This document shows, in pieces, positions 10,141-19,728 of a stretch of DNA of 19,728 nucleotides. The notes below the pieces were generated by a model. The model was not told the origin of the DNA and made no database searches. It saw only the letters and a program-made list of their open reading frames with translations. The DNA comes from Escherichia coli (GTDB lineage Bacteria > Pseudomonadota > Gammaproteobacteria > Enterobacterales > Enterobacteriaceae), in NCBI RefSeq assembly GCF_003334255.1, contig NZ_QOWU01000070.1, one strand, 5' to 3'. Within the stretch, counting starts at the first letter, position 1; every line of letters begins with the position of its first letter. Both the position numbers and the translations under genes were made by a program.

Positions 10141-10364
10141 TGCCGTGCCTCCATCTTTGCCGGGCCTGCAGGGTTGCAAGGGCGCAAGGGAAGCCGCAGC
10201 CTGACGCGCACGGCTGACGGGAGTTGGAGGGTGAGACCGCGAAATCTGAGCGGGTGAACGACCGGAAAATCACGGCAGACGGGAAGGAGGGACCGGGTGA
10301 CCGCAGCGGTTCACCTTACCTTGCAACCCGCCCGCAGAAGCCCGGCTACGATGGAGGCACGGCA
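10141..10364 (+). promoter_or_regulatory. Long imperfect hairpin (about 225 bp) upstream of the klcA-like operon; possible third ssDNA promoter/ssi element
   Basis: Outer arms TGCCGTGCCTCCATC (10141-10155) and GATGGAGGCACGGCA (10350-10364) are exact reverse complements; inner arms GCCGGGC...GGTTGCAAGG / CCTTGCAACC...GCCCGGC also pair; nested palindromes CGGGTGAACGACCGG and GGTGACCGCAGCGGTTCACC. Confidence 0.5.
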
Positions 10365-10511
10365 CAGCCCGCACACGACGCTGAGGCCACATAACTGAAA
10401 ACCCACAAGGCCATGCCCCGCATGGCCGGGTAAAGCGGAGCCTGCGGCGACATCCTTTTGCTCTTTCCGGGGACCGGCTGGAAAAGGCGGAGATTTTCCC
10501 CGCCAGCGTCA

Positions 10512-10835
10512 TCATTTCCGGATTTTCGCCAGTGCATCCGCCATGCTGCGGATTTCAGTCCGGGCTTCCAGGACCACCTCCCGCAGAATATCCCGGTCAA
10601 ACCAGCGACGGGACGGTTCATCAGGTATACGCAGCACATCGCAGGCCAGCCCACTGGACAGGATATGCTCCACACACTCACTGACCAGATACATTTCCAC
10701 CGACGAAAAACGAGCGCCACGGTTCAGAATGGCATCGAGCACCACGGGCAGATTTTCGTCATCTTCATCAAGCCAGCAGGGGTAATCGCTTTCCTTCACA
10801 ACCAGACGAAAGCGGCGCGTCTGGCGGGTCAGCAA
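10512..10835 (-). CDS. Hypothetical acidic protein, up to 107 aa (start uncertain)
   Basis: ORF with TTG start in the track and no clear SD; contains the acidic stretch [12 protein letters not shown]; real start could be internal. Confidence 0.45.
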
Positions 10836-11114
10836 CGTCTGACCGGTGGTGGTCAGCGCCGCCCGGATACGCGGGCATCTTCTGCCACTTGGTAACAGAT
10901 GCTTCGTACTGCATTGCGCACTGCATCAAGAACTGCCCTGATTTCGTCTTCGGTCAGCCATTCTCCGGCATACGGGAAAAACACCTGTGTTCCGTCTGCC
11001 GGAAGTACCGGCAGCGACTGCCACTGACTGCCGGACAGTACCAGTTCCGCCCCGGTTCCGGTCAGTTTCTGAATGGCGGAGGCCAGGAGCGGCGGCAGTA
11101 CGCCGCCGTGACGG

Positions 11115-11760: not shown

Positions 11761-12153
11761 TCAGAATAATTTTTTCATTTTAAGACGCACATCATTCATT
11801 GCCTTCTGCACCGAATCCGTAGCAGAAGGAGGCATTTTTTCAGCAGATTGCGAAGCACCGAGTTCAGTCAACACAGCTCTGATATCGGCCTGAGAAGGCT
11901 TCCATCCAGTCGTCTGACTGAGTAAGGTTACAACCTGATCTGCTGAAAACTCCTCGCTCAAAATGGCAGTCAGCAATACAGGCAGGCGAGGATCAAGTTG
12001 GTGTAACGCCATTCCAGAAATAAATGCATTCCGGAACAGCTCACCACGCTCAGAACGCGGAACGGACTCTATCGCTTCCAAAGTTTGAAAGTCTGCAGCT
12101 TTTTCCGGATGCAGATAAAGTGTGTATTTTTTCCTTTTCCGTTCATCGTCCAC
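11761..12153 (-). CDS. stbB: Partition adaptor StbB/ParR-like protein, about 131 aa
   Basis: Immediately downstream of the actin-type ATPase gene; GTG at 12151-12153 with SD AAAGAGGAG 7 nt upstream, just after the stbA stop (the track ATG at 12189 would overlap stbA by 32 nt). Assignment rests mainly on position. Confidence 0.55.
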   Translation of the reverse strand: MDDERKRKKYTLYLHPEKAADFQTLEAIESVPRSERGELFRNAFISGMALHQLDPRLPVLLTAILSEEFSADQVVTLLSQTTGWKPSQADIRAVLTELGASQSAEKMPPSATDSVQKAMNDVRLKMKKLF

Positions 12154-12157
12154 AATA

Positions 12158-13129
12158 TTACTCCTCTTTGAAAGCCGCGATAGCTTCAACCAGTGCTGTC
12201 TGTGGCGACTCCATCATCACTACTTTTTGCCCAAGATGGTGCCATGCCGTTTTTATCGAATCATAGATCAACGGGGCCCCACCACCGACAACATAAACAC
12301 GATTCACATGATGGAAATCACCGAGCTCATTGACTACTTGCTCCCCCAGACTGGCAATAGCCCCCTCAATGGTATTAAGGACCAGATCAGTTTTTGTTTC
12401 GTCATTTATAACCTGCCGAACAAAGTCCGGGTCATTACGACGTTTAATCAATTCATCTGCAACGAGGAAACTGGTATCACTGGATGCCATGCGCAATGCA
12501 CTCATTGCAGCTTTCGTAACTGAAGACACACCAATGCCAGAATTACCATGAATGGCACTTACAGAGTCAAATTGACCAACGATAACACCAACATCAAGCG
12601 TAGTGCCGCCAATATCAACTACCAGCGATTTTTCGAACTGACCAACTTTATCCATGACCAGACGAGAAAACACAGCTGGCAATGATTCAGGCATCACATC
12701 AACGTGTTCAATGGTGAAAACATCGCCTTTATTAAGACGAATCGGCCTCATTAAATTCTCAATTTTACGCTGAATGTTGAGTTCATTTTTTTGACACTCT
12801 TTCGTGTAGAACTCACTGATAGGCAAAGTCACAGTCAATGATACAGGCTGAGGCGCTAATCCACTATTCAGTAAAGCGTGATGCACAGCTAACAGGTTAA
12901 CATCCGTATATTGATACTCAATATGAGTCGTAAGAATAGATTGGTTACTAACTTCATCATACGTGTATTTTTTACCATCCAGTTCATAGTTAAATGTCTG
13001 GCGAATCCCTAACCCGTCAACCTTCCATCCATGACGAAATGAGTTTTGCGACAACGACTTACAGATTTTCCCATTGTCATTCCATGCCAACTTGATTGTT
13101 GTTGAACCATCATCGCAGTATACGTTCAT
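12158..13129 (-). CDS. stbA: Actin-like plasmid segregation ATPase (ParM/StbA family), 323 aa
   Basis: N-terminus MNVYCDDGSTTIKLAW parallels R1 ParM (MLVFIDDGSTNIKLQW), with phosphate motifs DIGGTTLD and VVGGGA; SD AAGGGG upstream of the ATG. Confidence 0.85.
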   Translation of the reverse strand: MNVYCDDGSTTIKLAWNDNGKICKSLSQNSFRHGWKVDGLGIRQTFNYELDGKKYTYDEVSNQSILTTHIEYQYTDVNLLAVHHALLNSGLAPQPVSLTVTLPISEFYTKECQKNELNIQRKIENLMRPIRLNKGDVFTIEHVDVMPESLPAVFSRLVMDKVGQFEKSLVVDIGGTTLDVGVIVGQFDSVSAIHGNSGIGVSSVTKAAMSALRMASSDTSFLVADELIKRRNDPDFVRQVINDETKTDLVLNTIEGAIASLGEQVVNELGDFHHVNRVYVVGGGAPLIYDSIKTAWHHLGQKVVMMESPQTALVEAIAAFKEE

Positions 13130-13357
13130 CTATAGCCCCTTAAATACTCAATCTGAGTAAATCACTGTTTCTGGTTGCAAGGTAATACTCAATTTGAGCA
13201 CCATCATAGTTATGAAATCACAAAACACAAGTATTATTTATTACATCACATGACTCACTTCATATTTCATACTTCATAAATGTGAACGCATATTGACACC
13301 TCAGGTTACCGTGTCAAAATATCATCATACTTCACACATCACATTTATGAGGTTGCA
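13130..13357. promoter_or_regulatory. AT-rich divergent promoter / centromere-like repeat region between stbA and parA
   Basis: Direct repeats AATACTCAATCTGAGTA (13143-13159) and AATACTCAATTTGAGCA (13183-13199), plus repeated ACTTCATA / ACATCACAT motifs; lies between divergently transcribed partition operons. Confidence 0.55.
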
Positions 13358-14002
13358 ATGATTACTGTAGTTGGTGGGAACAAAGGTGGTTCAGGGAAAA
13401 CTACCATTGCATCAAACCTGGCTATTGCTCTCGCAAATAAAGGAAGGGAAGTCTGCCTGTTAAACGGAGATCTACAACGAACAGCCGCAAAACATCATGC
13501 GGAACGAGAAGCTGCAGGACTGTTACCAGCAATAACCCTTGTTGAGAAATTTGATAATCTGACACAAACACTACAGGCTCTGAATGAAAAGTTCGATGAT
13601 GTAATAGTGGATGTCGCAGGAAGAAACTCAAAGGAATTCATAACGAGTGGAGTTGTCGCACATCAAATAATTGCGCCACTACAGTGTTCTCAACCAGATC
13701 TGGATACTCTTACAGAACTAGAACAACAGATAGACGCAATGCGTAACCTTAACCCGGAACTTAAGGTTTATTGTTTACAAAGTATGGCAACAACCAATCC
13801 GGTTTTGAGGGGAAATGAGAGAAAAGAATTCCTTGAATATCTTGAAGAATTCCCAACAATTCAAGTCCTGGATTCAGTTATTTGTTTCAGAAAAGTCTAT
13901 CGCGATTGCATGAGCAACGGCACCGGTGTAGTAGAAACGAACAATACAGCAGCCAAAGCAGAAATTGAACATTTAATGAATGAGGTATTTGGCCCATGGT
14001 GA
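13358..14002 (+). CDS. ParA-family (small, ParF-like) partition ATPase, 214 aa
   Basis: Deviant Walker A VVGGNKGGSGKTT near the N-terminus; SD GAGG upstream of the ATG. Confidence 0.85.
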   Translation: MITVVGGNKGGSGKTTIASNLAIALANKGREVCLLNGDLQRTAAKHHAEREAAGLLPAITLVEKFDNLTQTLQALNEKFDDVIVDVAGRNSKEFITSGVVAHQIIAPLQCSQPDLDTLTELEQQIDAMRNLNPELKVYCLQSMATTNPVLRGNERKEFLEYLEEFPTIQVLDSVICFRKVYRDCMSNGTGVVETNNTAAKAEIEHLMNEVFGPW

Positions 14003-14271
14003 AAAAACCCAGCCAGCAAGCATTAAACAGAGCTGCAGTTACGGTAGAACAAGCAGAGGCTCTGGCTCAGCGCCTTGCGGATAAACCATACGGCGCGCCG
14101 GAAAAAACCGAACCAGAAAAACAATGTCGGACGACAATCTCTCTTGGTGAAAGCATGCTTGTCACAATAGAAGATCTGGCATTGAGGAATAAACGCAATG
14201 GTAAAGATCCAAAAAATGTAAGTGCCATCGTCAGAGTAGCCCTTGAGCAATACTTAAAAACACTAACGTAA
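13996..14271 (+). CDS. Small partner protein of ParA (possible ParG/RHH-type centromere-binding protein), 91 aa
   Basis: Start overlaps the parA stop (ATGGTGA), indicating translational coupling; small, charged. Function inferred from position. Confidence 0.5.
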   Translation: MVKKPSQQALNRAAVTVEQAEALAQRLADKPYGAPEKTEPEKQCRTTISLGESMLVTIEDLALRNKRNGKDPKNVSAIVRVALEQYLKTLT

Positions 14272-14340
14272 TAATCAAGAAGTTATTACTTATGAAATCA
14301 CACTTGTGAATTCATACTGTTTAAGCACCCTTGCATACAA

Positions 14341-14371
14341 GAGATCACATATTGCAGTGGTCTCTTTTATT
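14341..14371 (+). terminator. Rho-independent terminator after the parA operon
   Basis: Stem GAGATCAC / GTGGTCTC (one G-U pair), 8-nt loop, followed by TTTTATT. Confidence 0.6.
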
Positions 14372-14401
14372 ACAGAATAATTCATAATTATGATTTGTGA
14401 A

Positions 14402-15184
14402 TTATGCGTGTCTGTTTTTCAGCATTGTGACCGCATCGGACTCAGGCATCAAAAACTGCACCCGGTGCCGTGCAGCCACATCCAGTGCAAACACCTTCGT
14501 GTAGACCTCCGTTGAGCTGATGGACTTATGCCCCATCAGGCTCTGCAGGACCTTCAGCGGTATACCGGCATACAGCATGTGCATCGCATAGGAATGGCGG
14601 AACGTATGTGGCGTGACCGGGACAGAGAACGTCACACCATCAGCGGCAGCGGCGGCAACCGCCTCCCCAATCCAGGTCCTGACCGTTCTGTCAGTCACTT
14701 CCCAGATCCGCGCTTTCTCTGTCCTGCCTGTTCGTTTATTACGCCGTTCCATGGGGATTTTCAGTGTTGCCACCATCGTCTGCAGCTGGCTGACGTACCA
14801 GGAGTCGGAGAGCGGAACCAGCCGGTGAGTCTGCTGACCGGCGGGCATTCTTCCTGCCGTCCTGGCGGCTTTTTCTGTCCGCTGCTTCAGAGTGGCCAGT
14901 TGCACAAACGGATACGGGGGCGCAAGCGAAAAATCCCCCCGCGTCAGCGCCAGTGCTTCATTAATGCGCGCACCGGTGTTCCACAGTGTGGCCAGCAGCA
15001 TCTTGCGGCGCAGATCCGGGACGTAATGGAGCAGGGCGCTCACTTCAGGGGCCAGCAGGTATTTTGGCAGTTCATCATGAACCATCGACATCTGGCGGAG
15101 TGCCAGCGCTGCCGGATAATCGATGGCAACAGGAAGCTGAGCAGCATCCCGGGCATGGTGGATCGGTGCCGGCAGGTGCTGCAT
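14402..15184 (-). CDS. Tyrosine site-specific recombinase (XerD/ResD-like), 260 aa
   Basis: C-terminal catalytic signature HTFRHSYAMHMLYAGIPLKVLQSLMGHKSISSTEVYTKV and upstream TLWNTGARINEAL (R...H..R..Y). The ATG at 15182-15184 sits 1 nt after the upstream gene stop; the track ORF begins earlier at 15337. Confidence 0.88.
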   Translation of the reverse strand: MQHLPAPIHHARDAAQLPVAIDYPAALALRQMSMVHDELPKYLLAPEVSALLHYVPDLRRKMLLATLWNTGARINEALALTRGDFSLAPPYPFVQLATLKQRTEKAARTAGRMPAGQQTHRLVPLSDSWYVSQLQTMVATLKIPMERRNKRTGRTEKARIWEVTDRTVRTWIGEAVAAAAADGVTFSVPVTPHTFRHSYAMHMLYAGIPLKVLQSLMGHKSISSTEVYTKVFALDVAARHRVQFLMPESDAVTMLKNRHA

Positions 15185-15185
15185 A

Positions 15186-15599
15186 TCAGTGTTCACTCCA
15201 CGGGGAAACGTCGGGCAGGTTTTCCACAACACGGTACTTTCCCGGATAACGGAGCTGGTTACCGCCATGCGTCCGGACGGTGACAACAAAACCCCCTCCC
15301 TGGTTGTTTTCGGGGAGCAGGCGATCGCACTGCTCACTCAGCATGTGGATCACAAACGGCGCATCGCTGCCGTCTTCAAATACCAGTTCCAGCGCATCGC
15401 GGCCATTCAGCGTTCCCTTACTGATGATGACGTACTCAGCCCCCCGCATCTCCCTGAGTAAATGTTTTGCCGCATCCGGGACAAGCAGCCTGGCTGCGCC
15501 GGCATTCCAGCTGAGGTAGACATATCCGGCCTGCGCCTGTACAGACTGCCAGTAATCCGTTCTGGCGACAGCCTGACCTTCATTCTCAATAAAAAACAT
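15186..15599 (-). CDS. Hypothetical protein encoded directly upstream of, and co-transcribed with, the recombinase, 137 aa
   Basis: ATG at 15597-15599 with strong SD AAGGAG 7 nt upstream; stop adjacent to the recombinase start (TGATATG). Confidence 0.7.
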   Translation of the reverse strand: MFFIENEGQAVARTDYWQSVQAQAGYVYLSWNAGAARLLVPDAAKHLLREMRGAEYVIISKGTLNGRDALELVFEDGSDAPFVIHMLSEQCDRLLPENNQGGGFVVTVRTHGGNQLRYPGKYRVVENLPDVSPWSEH

Positions 15600-15682
15600 G
15601 GGTGACTCCTTTTTTCTTTTCCGGGCAGGGACGGTCATGCGATAACGTCATCCATCATCACTGCCCTTACCGTCACGCCGTC

Positions 15683-15929
15683 TGATAACATCATGCCGTT
15701 ATCATCATCACCATGATAACAAGCATCCATATAACCACGCCGTTAAATTACCGGAGAGCCGTTTCCGTCAGATCCGACTTTCCGGAATATCACAACTTTC
15801 CGGAAGTGTACCACGCTGAGAAAATAATCATATCGCTGTTTTCCGCCCCTGCGCGGCGCATCACAGGTCAGGGAGATGACACAACATATAGTGTCATCAG
15901 CAGCTGAATTCAGCACTACATATTGTGCT
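15683..15929. other. Cluster of inverted-repeat sites with 8-bp spacers; candidate recombination/resolution site for the adjacent tyrosine recombinase
   Basis: TGATAAC-ATCATGCC-GTTATCA (15683-15704); GATGACAC-AACATATA-GTGTCATC (15875-15898); AGCAC-TACATATT-GTGCT (15912-15929); plus the perfect palindrome GCTGAATTCAGC (15903-15914) and two TTTCCGGAA copies near 15779-15806. Confidence 0.4.
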
Positions 15930-16036
15930 GACAGGAGGTGGCGTTATGTGGGGGGAGAGGAAGATCCTGAACTGCCGGAAACCGGATCTGCGCGGCGGGG
16001 AACGGGCATGAAATATGATAATTAAGCAACATACAC

Positions 16037-16130
16037 AAAATCATATCAGATATGATTTTTATCATTTATGGTAAATCATATCTGATATTATAAGAATTCA
16101 ATAACCAATAAATCATATATAATATGATTT
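16037..16130. promoter_or_regulatory. Three operator-like palindromes AAATCATAT-N1-3-ATATGATTT upstream of the 16167 operon
   Basis: Perfect palindromes at 16037-16059 (11-bp arms) and 16110-16130 (9-bp arms); a degenerate copy at 16074-16090; all in an AT-rich stretch ending ~35 bp before the ATG at 16167. Confidence 0.55.
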
Positions 16131-16166
16131 TTACCTGTCAGAACATTATCAGATGGAGTGTGCAGG

Positions 16167-16424
16167 ATGGATGAAGAACGGGTGTTTTCACTCAGCTATG
16201 AACAACTGACCCGGTTTGCGGAACGACGCATCCGGGAATGCAATCTGGACAGCCAGGGCGCAATTTATCTCTGCGAGTCAGCCAAAGCCGGAGCCGTGCT
16301 GATCTTCTGGCATGAACTGGCCATAAATGGCTATGCCTCAATGAATGCCATAAAGAGACAGGAGCTCATTGACGCCGACTTTCAGCGCCTCAGAAAGCTC
16401 ATCTGGCCGGAGGATGACAGGTAA
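16167..16424 (+). CDS. Hypothetical protein, 85 aa, first gene of a two-gene operon
   Basis: ATG at 16167 with SD GGAGTG (the track begins at a GTG at 16158); stop overlaps the next start (TAATG). Confidence 0.6.
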   Translation: MDEERVFSLSYEQLTRFAERRIRECNLDSQGAIYLCESAKAGAVLIFWHELAINGYASMNAIKRQELIDADFQRLRKLIWPEDDR

Positions 16425-17014
16425 TGACCCAGAGCCGCCGACCGTCGCCACTGCAGCGGAGAGTGCTGATTGTGCTGGCTGCGCTTGATGAAAAACGGCC
16501 GGGCCCCGTGCTGACGCGGGACCTGGAACGGGTGCTGGAGCGAAGCGGGGAAGCCCCGGTCTACGGGCCAAACCTGCGCGCCTCCTGCCGTCGTCTGGAG
16601 GATGCCGGCTGGCTGCGTACCCTGCGCGCTCTAAACCTGCAGCTGGCAGTGGAGCTGACGGACGCCGGCCGGGCCGTGGCACAGCCTCTGCTGCTGGCAG
16701 AACAGGACCGCCTCCGGGAAGAACAGCGTGCGGCAGAAGTCGTCGTACTGCCGCTGGTCCCGGCAACAGGTCTGCCCGCAGACGGCACTTCTGCCACTGA
16801 TCTGGCGGTGGAGCTGAACGGCATGACGTATCAGGCCTGCCGTGGGGATTTTGTGGTGCGTCTCGACGGCAGCACCTGTCTGCAGTTATGGAATAAAGAA
16901 GGCAGAGTGGTACGCCGGGAGGGCGATCCACTGGAAGTGGCGCAGTGGCTGCAGGCCTGTCACGATGCAGGAATGGAGGTTCGTGTGCAGGTTAATGAAA
17001 GCACCAACCCGTAA
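16424..17014 (+). CDS. Hypothetical protein, 196 aa, conspicuously GC-rich relative to its neighbours, possible N-terminal HTH
   Basis: Codon third positions strongly G/C-biased in this frame (CTG, GCC, CGC), supporting plus-strand coding over the antisense ORF 16338-16931. N-terminal LQRRVLIVLAALDEKRPGPVLTRDLERVL resembles a DNA-binding helix pair. Confidence 0.6.
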   Translation: MTQSRRPSPLQRRVLIVLAALDEKRPGPVLTRDLERVLERSGEAPVYGPNLRASCRRLEDAGWLRTLRALNLQLAVELTDAGRAVAQPLLLAEQDRLREEQRAAEVVVLPLVPATGLPADGTSATDLAVELNGMTYQACRGDFVVRLDGSTCLQLWNKEGRVVRREGDPLEVAQWLQACHDAGMEVRVQVNESTNP

Positions 17015-17031
17015 AAACATGCCTGCACGGT

Positions 17032-17379
17032 TTACACATCATCCCATGGTGGCAGCCGGTTAACTTTCCTGCGCCACCAGTGGAGAGAGGCCATAAGCAG
17101 TCCGTACAAAAAACCATTCGTGATACTTATAATAATGGCCTCACCTGCTACCATTCCTGACGGCCCCCAGTAGATAAACCACATTGCACATCCCCAGGAA
17201 ATGCCCCATAAGCCCCCCGTCAGCACCGTGACCTGCCAGAACGGCATAAAGGGTAATGGCGGAAGCCGGATACCCAGCCGCCAGAGAATACGCAGAAGAG
17301 GAGGGGCATAATTGCTCCGCCACATCTTTTTGCTGTCCATCAGGGCAATGGCCCGTGCTTTTTTCTGCTCAAAGGTCAC
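17032..17379 (-). CDS. Small hydrophobic membrane protein, 115 aa
   Basis: GTG start with SD GGAGG 7 nt upstream; at least two hydrophobic, Trp/Gly-rich segments (VTVLTGGLWGISWGCAMWFIYWGPSGMVAGEAIIISITNGFLYGLLMASL). Confidence 0.6.
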   Translation of the reverse strand: MTFEQKKARAIALMDSKKMWRSNYAPPLLRILWRLGIRLPPLPFMPFWQVTVLTGGLWGISWGCAMWFIYWGPSGMVAGEAIIISITNGFLYGLLMASLHWWRRKVNRLPPWDDV

Positions 17380-17497
17380 AGGAGCACCTCCGTTCCATGA
17401 TGTAAACGTGACACAGCTTATTGTTATTGATTATTATTATCATGCTGTGATTATGTTGTCACGCACCGGTACACGATAACAATAAAGGAGAAACCAG

Positions 17498-17845
17498 ATG
17501 AAACTGGATATATCTGTAAAGTATTTACTGAAGAGCCTGATACCAAGCCTCATTATTCTTACAGTTTTTTATCTGGGATGGAAAGATAACCAGGAAAATG
17601 CAAGAATGTTTTATGCGTTCATCGGATGCATTATCAGTGCCATTACTTTTCCTTTTTCAATGAGGATAATACAGAAAATGGTAATAAGGTTTACAGGGAA
17701 AGAATTCTGGCAAAAAGACTTCTTTACAAATCCAGTTGGCGGAAGCTTAACTGCTATATTTGAATTATTCTGTTTCGTTATATCAGTTCCTGTGGTTGCC
17801 ATTTACTTAATTTTTATATTCTGCAAAGCCCTTTCAGGAAAATGA
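17498..17845 (+). CDS. Colicin immunity protein of the small E1/Ia/Ib type, 115 aa (likely colicin Ib-type)
   Basis: Strong SD AAAGGAG; small hydrophobic protein with three predicted membrane segments; convergent with and 18 bp from the end of a colicin pore-domain ORF, the classical pore-former colicin-immunity arrangement. Confidence 0.65.
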   Translation: MKLDISVKYLLKSLIPSLIILTVFYLGWKDNQENARMFYAFIGCIISAITFPFSMRIIQKMVIRFTGKEFWQKDFFTNPVGGSLTAIFELFCFVISVPVVAIYLIFIFCKALSGK

Positions 17846-17862
17846 AAGGGCATCATTATGTG

Positions 17863-18375
17863 TCAGATACCAATAAGTTTATTGACCTGCTCAATAAACT
17901 TATCATTAACAAGCGCACTCACAGCAGCCATAATAATTGCAAAACCCAGAATACCTACAGGGGTTCCCAGCATGACGGAAAACGTCCATGCTGTAACTGC
18001 TGAAGCAGCTCTTCCTGCTGCCAGTGATTCAAGTTTTACAAAAAATGGACGCCAGTTGTCCGTTTTTACAGCCTTTTGTAACTCCACAGCAACATCATAA
18101 CGATCAATAACTTTTCCGGTAAAACCAAATGCCTTACTGAACAGCTTAAAATTCTCCGCCATATGGACCTGATTAATAGCTTCCAGGGCTTTAGAAATGG
18201 CCATGCGATCTTGTATGCTATATTTCTTGTTCAGATTATTACGGAATTTATCAAAAGCGTTCAGTGCATCATCCACACTCTTAATTTGTTTCCCTTGAGA
18301 TACAGAAGCCAGCTCCTTAGAAAGTTCGGATGCTTGTTTACCCGAGTAGGCAGCCTGGCGGCTGCGGCTTGTCAT
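17863..18375 (-). pseudogene. Pore-forming colicin, C-terminal channel domain only (170 aa); N-terminal translocation and receptor domains absent
   Basis: TDNWRPFFVKLESLAAGRAASAVTAWTFSVMLGTPVGILGFAIIMAAVSALVNDKFIEQVNKLIGI matches the hydrophobic helical hairpin and C-terminal LIGI ending of channel-forming colicins as I recall them. An in-frame TAA three codons upstream of the first ATG shows the rest of the gene is missing. Confidence 0.7.
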
Positions 18376-18430
18376 GGCCTGGAATTACCGTTATAAAAAA
18401 AGATAATGTCATTGTCTTTCAGGTAGTTAT

Positions 18431-18802: not shown

Positions 18803-19728
<926 letters not shown>

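Follow-up and report, generated by a model that had tools for sequence, protein, structure and literature searches.

The ybaA gene beside the colicin Ib immunity gene: a DUF6404-family member with a probable bidirectional promoter and a candidate Fur box

The small membrane-protein gene lying next to the colicin Ib immunity gene (imm) in the E. coli DNA studied here (hereafter the window, i.e., the whole analysed stretch of 19,728 nucleotides) is ybaA, an intact member of the DUF6404 family at an ordinary and already annotated locus. The two genes stand head-to-head across a spacer of 118 bp (40% GC). Our reading of this spacer is that it is a compact bidirectional sigma-70 promoter, the palindrome seen in it being the symmetry of that promoter rather than an RNA hairpin or a dedicated operator, and that a candidate Fur box covers the core which both genes have in common. 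Taken as a whole, with the Fur site and the DUF6404 identity included, we hold this explanation to be moderately probable. If the Fur control is true, immunity to colicin Ib would follow the iron supply, as do the colicin itself and its receptor, and the DUF6404 family would gain its first regulatory handle.

The ybaA gene and the DUF6404 family

The open reading frame of ybaA (17032-17379, minus strand) encodes 115 amino acids from a GTG start. Seven nucleotides 5′ of this start the sequence has a GGAGG Shine-Dalgarno motif (17387-17391, minus strand), which is unchanged in the five plasmids compared and is also present in Serratia and Kluyvera. Its divergent partner imm (17498-17845, plus strand) likewise encodes 115 amino acids and shares the promoter core with it. 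A first, sequence-only reading of this DNA had described a 115-aa hydrophobic membrane protein with a good Shine-Dalgarno motif, both of which hold, the protein having two hydrophobic helices; it had also placed the gene divergent from imm, correctly, and back-to-back with it, which is to be corrected to head-to-head. The same reading could not identify the protein, a question that a homology search answers: Pfam PF19942 (DUF6404) matches residues 1-114 with E 8.2e-37 over positions 1-114 of the 115 in the model (i.e., full length), and phrog_31022 matches as well, the search of NCBIfam with the same protein giving no match. The protein also has the features by which members of the family are recognised: it stands alone, its length is within about 110-130 aa, its N-terminal helices are followed by a two-helix membrane hairpin, and an LPxW motif lies at its C-terminus. 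On identical plasmids the same coding sequence is annotated in RefSeq as 'DUF6404 family protein', ybaA being its name in older IncI1 annotation. The 'ybaA' met with in the literature is an unrelated F-plasmid gene, and a literature search found no paper naming DUF6404. Proteins identical to it, or 90-96% identical, already stand in the annotation of thousands of plasmids from E. coli, Salmonella and Klebsiella.

The AF2 model of the protein (pLDDT 97, pTM 0.84) has helices at residues 3-16, 21-24, 27-34, 47-71 and 78-106, the last two of which are the hydrophobic ones, joined by the linker GPSGMV as a six-residue turn that would be periplasmic. Lysines and arginines number nine in the N-terminal 46 residues and four in the tail, which is basic and ends in LPPWDDV, with the conserved LPxW motif. 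The protein is predicted to be an inner-membrane hairpin of two transmembrane (TM) segments with both termini in the cytoplasm, on account of its hydropathy, its positive-inside charge distribution and the AF2 model; its predicted periplasmic exposure is next to nil. In this layout a helical N-terminal domain of some 45 residues, basic and cytoplasmic, precedes the hairpin, and a short basic tail on the cytoplasmic side follows it. Across the family (about 710 clusters at 50% identity from Gamma-, Beta- and Alphaproteobacteria, nearly all of standalone proteins of 110-130 aa) the only near-invariant residues are A10, G36, P41, G93 and W112, of which W112 is invariant in 41 diverse members, and this lack of conserved polar or catalytic residues argues against an enzyme role. 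A sequence search of PDB chains with the ybaA protein gave nothing below E 0.06 and no informative fold match.

Plasmid alleles of ybaA are often frameshifted or truncated. The common allele carries a G7T5 run (ACGGGGGGGTTTTTG), at the place of which the window allele, intact, has ACGAATGGTTTTTTG (GAATGG), so that with the G7 run the frameshift hot spot is absent too. The deposited sequence of ColIb-P9 has G9T4 for G7T5, which shifts the frame after about residue 87 and leaves a product of 106 aa, and which could be a homopolymer-run error in an old sequence. Other breaks fall at the same G-run or at an A-run near the start. The dN/dS ratio is 0.25-0.74, from three alleles and very few changes.

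As to its surroundings, the window agrees with NZ_CP060058.1 at 100% identity along its entire 19.7 kb, is identical from 16100 to 18400 to pECOED, and matches E. coli plasmids of IncK2/Z- and IncI-type. The gene itself is very common: tblastn against PLSDB finds ybaA in 3,130 plasmids, and of the 466-bp region made up of gene plus spacer, 80% or more is present in 1,597 of 5,426 complete E. coli genomes. In E. coli and Salmonella (at least 90% identity) it is part of a block, cia/cib-imm-ybaA-ydfA-ydeA, on IncI and IncF plasmids, and ColV plasmids have it together with its entire upstream region, which ends 6 nt before the lost imm; the IncI and IncF plasmids on which ybaA accompanies the colicin Ia/Ib and ColV modules matter in both clinical and agricultural settings. 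Farther afield, about 960 Klebsiella F plasmids have a 52%-identical copy directly after finO, Klebsiella phage-plasmids also carry DUF6404 homologues, two P22-like prophages have one between the injection/tail and ant genes (once adjoining an Mrr-type nuclease gene), and a Salmonella plasmid has one at 2.5 kb from the locus of a colicin V-family microcin with mchF. Many homologues sit in ordinary chromosomal neighbourhoods, and a remnant of 78 nt, 95% identical to the 3′ end of ybaA, is found on about 2,200 E. coli chromosomes; among 2.9 million viral contigs only 7 contain ybaA. A genome scan with a closer alignment of DUF6404 gave 16 loci. Guilt by association was not informative, since ORF clustering in 21 loci, with 38 neighbours compared with Pfam and 10 with NCBIfam, found no neighbour family recurring beyond close relatives.

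Promoter elements and start sites in the shared spacer

Scanning the spacer with the promoter consensus gives two sites of 10/12 on opposite strands, with one -10 block in common. In the direction of imm, the -35 hexamer GTGACA (17408-17413, plus strand) is separated by 18 nt from TATTAT (17432-17437, plus strand), and in the direction of ybaA a second GTGACA (17457-17462, minus strand) is separated by 18 nt from AATAAT (17438-17433, minus strand), both -10 hexamers thus lying within 17432-17438. This common block fits start sites mapped on a relative, the plasmid pCol1B9_SL1344 of LB-grown S. Typhimurium SL1344, for which Cappable-seq (Table S1 of PMC10268837) lists 10576(-), 10591(+), 10592(+), 10593(-), 10609(+), 10610(+) and 10612(+) at this locus, all seven of them flagged as members of divergent pairs (PMC10268837). 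In NC_017718, which has the same numbering, imm occupies 10192-10539 and the DUF6404 gene 10658-11005, and the spacer is identical to that of the window at 116 of 118 positions without a gap, so the start sites of the relative map exactly onto the window.

Transferred this way, 10593(-) becomes an imm start at 17444 (plus strand), at the predicted position, and 10609, 10610 and 10612 (all +) become a cluster of ybaA starts at 17425-17428 (minus strand), 16-19 bp from the imm start. The remaining sites form a second, weaker divergent pair at 17461 (plus strand) and 17445/17446 (minus strand), corresponding to 10576(-) and 10591/10592(+), with the -10-like sequences GATTAT and CATAAT. In bidirectional promoters the starts on opposite strands are most often 18 bp apart (PMC10268837, PMC12825309), and a bidirectional sigma-70 promoter is recognised by starts 7-25 bp apart around a common -10, which is the arrangement seen here by way of the pCol1B9_SL1344 starts. 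In the distance between its starts and in its single AT-rich -10 block the spacer is like the bidirectional sigma-70 promoters of Warman, Middlemiss and Grainger; unlike most bidirectional promoters of these plasmids, which are intragenic, it has two good -35 elements (GTGACA) and serves two genes with Shine-Dalgarno motifs. The density of start sites is very high (2,417 on two plasmids of ~181 kb, or roughly one per 150 nt per strand), and the positional match is therefore strong evidence and not proof. The ybaA/imm locus is only tabulated in the bidirectional-promoter paper, without individual discussion.

The candidate Fur box and the inverted repeats

The sequence GATAATAATAATCAATAAC (17423-17441, read on the minus strand) is a candidate Fur box, agreeing with the E. 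coli consensus at 16 of 19 positions and covering both the -10 block and the ybaA starts. It is the only match with at most three mismatches in the 19.7-kb window, where 0.01 would be expected; none of 20,000 shuffles of the spacer reached 16/19, and shuffles of its AT-rich core did so at a frequency of 5e-5. AT-rich -10 sequences inherently resemble a Fur box, and the local shuffles speak against this resemblance accounting for the match entirely. The cib promoter of ColIb-P9, taken as a positive control, likewise scores 16/19, and cib has Fur and LexA sites and was induced in experiments by iron limitation or chelation (PMC3879352). The site in the spacer is like the Fur-repressed promoters of the colicin Ib system (cib, and the receptor gene cirA) in lying over the core promoter, and its score equals that of the box upstream of cib. 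It differs in that one box would serve two divergent genes, in that no LexA box accompanies it (a search of the spacer for LexA boxes found none), and in that Fur control is here something we infer.

The box is invariant in ColIb-P9, pKF3-140, pO55 (ColIa) and one ColV plasmid. It also occurs, at 15-17/19, in a second lineage of ybaA with 55-57% protein identity, found in Serratia, Kluyvera, a Klebsiella fragment and an IMG/VR contig, in which imm is absent and similarity is lost in the flanks and at the GTGACA arms. The centre of the box is 51-57 nt before the gene start in three of these and about 68 nt in the Klebsiella fragment, the distance in the window being 52 nt. A match lying over the -10 and start site, and a site kept in diverged orthologous promoters, are what is expected of a Fur-repressed promoter, and both are found here; going by these sequence comparisons, the site in the spacer probably binds Fur, which would bring imm and ybaA under iron control. 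The box was not found in the other lineages searched (the Klebsiella chromosome and F plasmids, Kosakonia, a Salmonella megaplasmid and distant genera), and its absence from most family members makes any iron control a trait of one clade and not of the DUF6404 family.

In such a scheme, RNA polymerase would start imm at about 17444 (plus strand) and ybaA at about 17425-17428 (minus strand) around the common -10, and Fe(II)-Fur sitting on this -10 and the start sites would block both directions. Iron starvation would then raise imm and ybaA together, under the condition that also de-represses colicin Ib and the receptor Cir. As start sites were detected in LB, any repression by Fur must be incomplete.

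Of the other explanations, the one that survives best is that ybaA is a passenger whose role in the membrane is a general one, unrelated to competition or defence; it would have been picked up from the chromosome of an enterobacterium and since have travelled with the cia/cib-imm-ydfA-ydeA block, the Fur-like sequence being either the AT-rich core of the imm promoter or a matter of regulating imm only. The wide occurrence of DUF6404 as a chromosomal singleton in Gamma-, Beta- and Alphaproteobacteria would fit this well, and so would the lack of a conserved partner gene, the frequent disrupted alleles, the dN/dS values (with the few changes behind them) and the 3′-end remnant on E. coli chromosomes. 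It accounts poorly, however, for a Fur box that persists in imm-less elements of Serratia, Kluyvera and Klebsiella, its distance to the DUF6404 start being almost unchanged, and for the ColV plasmids, which keep ybaA and the whole region upstream of it up to the lost imm. We consider the passenger explanation possible, if rather doubtful.

The nested inverted repeats reported in the sequence-only reading do exist, at 17407-17463 and not at the 17403-17455 given there, and its proposal that the dyad symmetry marks a promoter region common to ybaA and imm agrees with the -35 hexamers, the -10 block and the start sites described above. The outer repeat (CGTGACA 17407-17413 / TGTCACG 17457-17463) includes both -35 hexamers in its arms, the inner one (CACAGC 17412-17417 / GCTGTG 17444-17449) lies in the two promoter spacers, and the left arms of the two overlap by 2 nt. 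When the spacer is shuffled with its dinucleotides preserved, 30% of the shuffles contain a perfect inverted repeat of at least 7 nt, so neither repeat is significant singly. A third repeat, missed in that reading, is perfect over 10 nt (TTATTGTTAT 17418-17427 / ATAACAATAA 17476-17485), specific to the ColIb lineage and unexplained. Over the spacer as a whole dyad symmetry is enriched, with 10 inverted 6-mer pairs where shuffles average 1.9 (P ~0.001), mostly because of this 10-nt repeat, the like of which is seen in 0.6% of shuffles.

Such enrichment, and the rarity of the 10-nt repeat, could be taken to mean that the repeats are the operator of a dedicated dimeric regulator other than Fur, or a hairpin of RNA or DNA controlling imm or ybaA. 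We find this improbable, since among close plasmids the arms change on one side only and in diverged relatives they are absent. ColIa plasmids have CATGACA as the outer arm and ColIb-P9 has CGTGATA, neither change being compensated on the other side, and Serratia and Kluyvera relatives are without it; the ColIa plasmids also lack the 10-nt repeat, its right arm being unconserved. The resulting hexamers, ATGACA (ColIa) and GTGATA (ColIb-P9), keep their -35 character and break the palindrome, and the arms coincide with -35 hexamers. The spacer has no LexA box that could stand for such an operator. As for a hairpin, each mapped transcript holds only one arm of any pair, and neither the 5′ UTRs nor the wider region is more stably folded than its shuffles (z -0.3 to +0.35). 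One ColV plasmid has three changes in its inner repeat, all of which allow G-U pairing on the ybaA strand; for transitions this has a 1-in-8 chance, and the mapped transcripts do not contain both arms, so this candidate was rejected.

Phage exclusion and a possible protective role

ybaA is not ibfA, the mapped phage-exclusion gene of ColIb. The proximity of a small membrane protein to the colicin locus had led the sequence-only reading to propose it as a candidate for the phage exclusion of ColIb-type plasmids, a tempting assignment that is not supported. The annotated ibfA of ColIb-P9 is at nt 13,401-13,745 of NC_002122 (PMC8004404). Its ORF, of 114 aa, resembles ybaA in its product, predicted to be a small membrane protein of almost equal length (114 vs 115 aa), and in lying within a few kb of cib-imm on a plasmid of like type, but it is another ORF, 2.4 kb away, and the two proteins have no sequence or profile similarity (hhalign probability 0.2%). 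It sits, together with a DUF4238 gene, in a segment of 3.5 kb that is absent from the window, whose positions 15965-18342 and 14416-15967 match either side of this segment in ColIb-P9. PADLOC-DB v2, searched with the ybaA protein, gave 0 families at E <=1. The different ibfA ORF, the frameshift of ybaA in ColIb-P9 and the lack of a PADLOC match together remove the specific support for the exclusion proposal, without disproving it.

That the ybaA protein is all or part of the ColIb abortive-infection determinant (ibf/abi), killing T5- or BF23-infected cells through membrane depolarisation, is the least probable of the explanations weighed here: a small inner-membrane protein adjoining the colicin Ib locus, ibf/abi products that were never identified biochemically and an ibfB without an assigned ORF (PMC10644984), an unrelated ibfA defence gene filling the equivalent ydfA-adjoining position in R64, and homologues at a moron position in two prophages, one beside the Mrr-type nuclease gene, are all in keeping with it, but the plasmid that has the T5/BF23 phenotype, ColIb-P9, is the one whose ybaA is frameshifted in its G-run, its ibfA lies elsewhere, and the roughly 3,100 plasmids carrying ybaA include ColIa, ColV and Klebsiella F plasmids, for which T5 exclusion is not known.

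A different and openly speculative proposal, to which we give only a tentative place, is that the ybaA protein is protective (i.e., immunity- or exclusion-like) within the membrane at times when TonB-dependent uptake routes are up-regulated. Extended further, and with a likelihood that we put lower still, the plasmid and prophage clade of DUF6404 might be a new single-gene class of protection, induced by iron starvation, against toxins or phages that enter via Fur-derepressed TonB-dependent receptors, ybaA being then a second 'immunity' gene co-regulated with imm. Between a protective membrane role under iron starvation and the role of a passenger we prefer the former, weakly.

Hints of protection can be seen in the vehicles of ybaA (plasmids, phage-plasmids and the two P22-like prophages), in the bacteriocin loci that adjoin it in separate contexts (ColIa/Ib, ColV and the colicin V-family microcin with mchF), and in the kind of residues conserved in DUF6404, none of them polar or catalytic. 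Against it, the protein resembles neither imm nor the ColIb ibfA ORF and matches no PADLOC model or solved structure, its neighbours are unconserved in more than 20 loci with many homologues in ordinary chromosomal contexts, many plasmid alleles are disrupted, and there is almost no periplasmic part. A cognate toxin gene adjoining ybaA was found in none of the more than 25 contexts examined. With the immunity proteins of the E1 group of pore-forming colicins (Ia/Ib Imm) the ybaA protein has in common its size class, the inner membrane, an adjacent gene and an apparent co-expression, whereas it has two TM segments instead of three and no profile similarity (hhalign probability 0.4% against the Imm of the window). 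An analogy with P22 SieA may also be drawn, which we take to be one of position, the two prophage homologues lying between the injection/tail genes and the ant region.

The ydeA-ydfA pair and its flanks

Between ybaA and the left part of the window lie a ydeA-like and a ydfA-like gene (16158-17014; 88 and 196 aa), which overlap at an ATGA and are kept in ColIb-P9, in R64 and in thousands of F and I plasmids. What surrounds them differs from plasmid to plasmid. The window is without a 3.5-kb segment of ColIb-P9 (NC_002122, about 12,076-15,631), the junction falling at window 15965-15967, and in that segment the annotated ibfA ORF is accompanied by a DUF4238 gene and two hypothetical genes. In R64 the ydeA side, where ColIb-P9 has this segment, is occupied by vapBC and a gene for an AAA-family ATPase, and R64's own ibfA, a defence gene, is on the opposite flank, beyond ydfA. 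Given these differing flank contents in the three plasmids, the ydeA-ydfA pair looks like an anchor with variable defence cargo at its sides. As for ydfA itself, its matches are weak only (PADLOC JetA, E 0.0095; phrog_19460).

Directly upstream of the ydeA-like ORF, at 16013-16133, there are three copies of a near-palindrome of 19-22 nt (AAATCATATCAGATATGATTT) spaced by 35-37 bp, the first of which includes a perfect 11-nt inverted repeat about one central base. This arrangement looks like an operator array.

The orphan immunity gene and its shared spacer

On the other side of ybaA (17032-17379, minus strand) and divergent from it stands the colicin Ib immunity gene imm (17498-17845, plus strand). 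Beyond imm, all that is left of the colicin Ib gene is a 170-aa ORF on the minus strand (17863-18375) holding only the C-terminal pore-forming part, and in sequence comparison its homology to ColIb-P9 cib ends at 18342; the imm of this plasmid is, therefore, an orphan immunity gene. The remnant is followed by a 121-aa ORF (phrog_25574) and then by an IS3-family transposase (18811-19728).

The spacer between ybaA and imm contains a perfect 10-nt inverted repeat, TTATTGTTAT (17418-17427) and ATAACAATAA (17476-17485), expected by chance with a probability of 0.6%, and its right arm adjoins the imm Shine-Dalgarno site. The repeat was not found in the ColIa plasmids compared, and in none of the mapped transcripts do both arms occur together.

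Alleles, remnants and distant relatives of ybaA

At codons 86-90 of ybaA (window 17110-17125; see also 2659-2979 of L009, another of the loci compared), the common allele has a G7T5 homopolymer (ACGGGGGGGTTTTTG), and several protein clusters stop or change frame precisely there. ColIb-P9 ybaA reads G9T4 at the same run and is frameshifted. The run is a hot spot for slippage or sequencing error; the window allele (GAATGGTTTTTT) is without it.

The 3′ 80 nt of ybaA (17032-17111) recur with 91-95% identity at some 2,200 places in E. coli chromosomes. At the one locus examined (L051, 3501-3578), the remnant is annotated as a DUF6404 pseudogene, lacks the N-terminus, is interrupted by an IS66 element and adjoins a gene for a phytase-like esterase of 453 aa. 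The unnamed gene beside the intact homologue of Klebsiella chromosomes also encodes 453 aa.

In an Enterobacteriaceae MAG (L031, 3518-3904), a gene for a 128-aa protein lies immediately upstream of a DUF6404 homologue. This protein matches the TolA C-terminal domain only (E 1e-22) and could be a decoy against Tol-dependent colicins or filamentous phages. A distant homologue of 35% identity lies within ten small same-strand genes (L037, 30-5439). Among these is a gene for a polymorphic-toxin immunity domain (Imm70), which makes the run, seen once and on a contig of 5.5 kb, resemble an orphan-immunity array.
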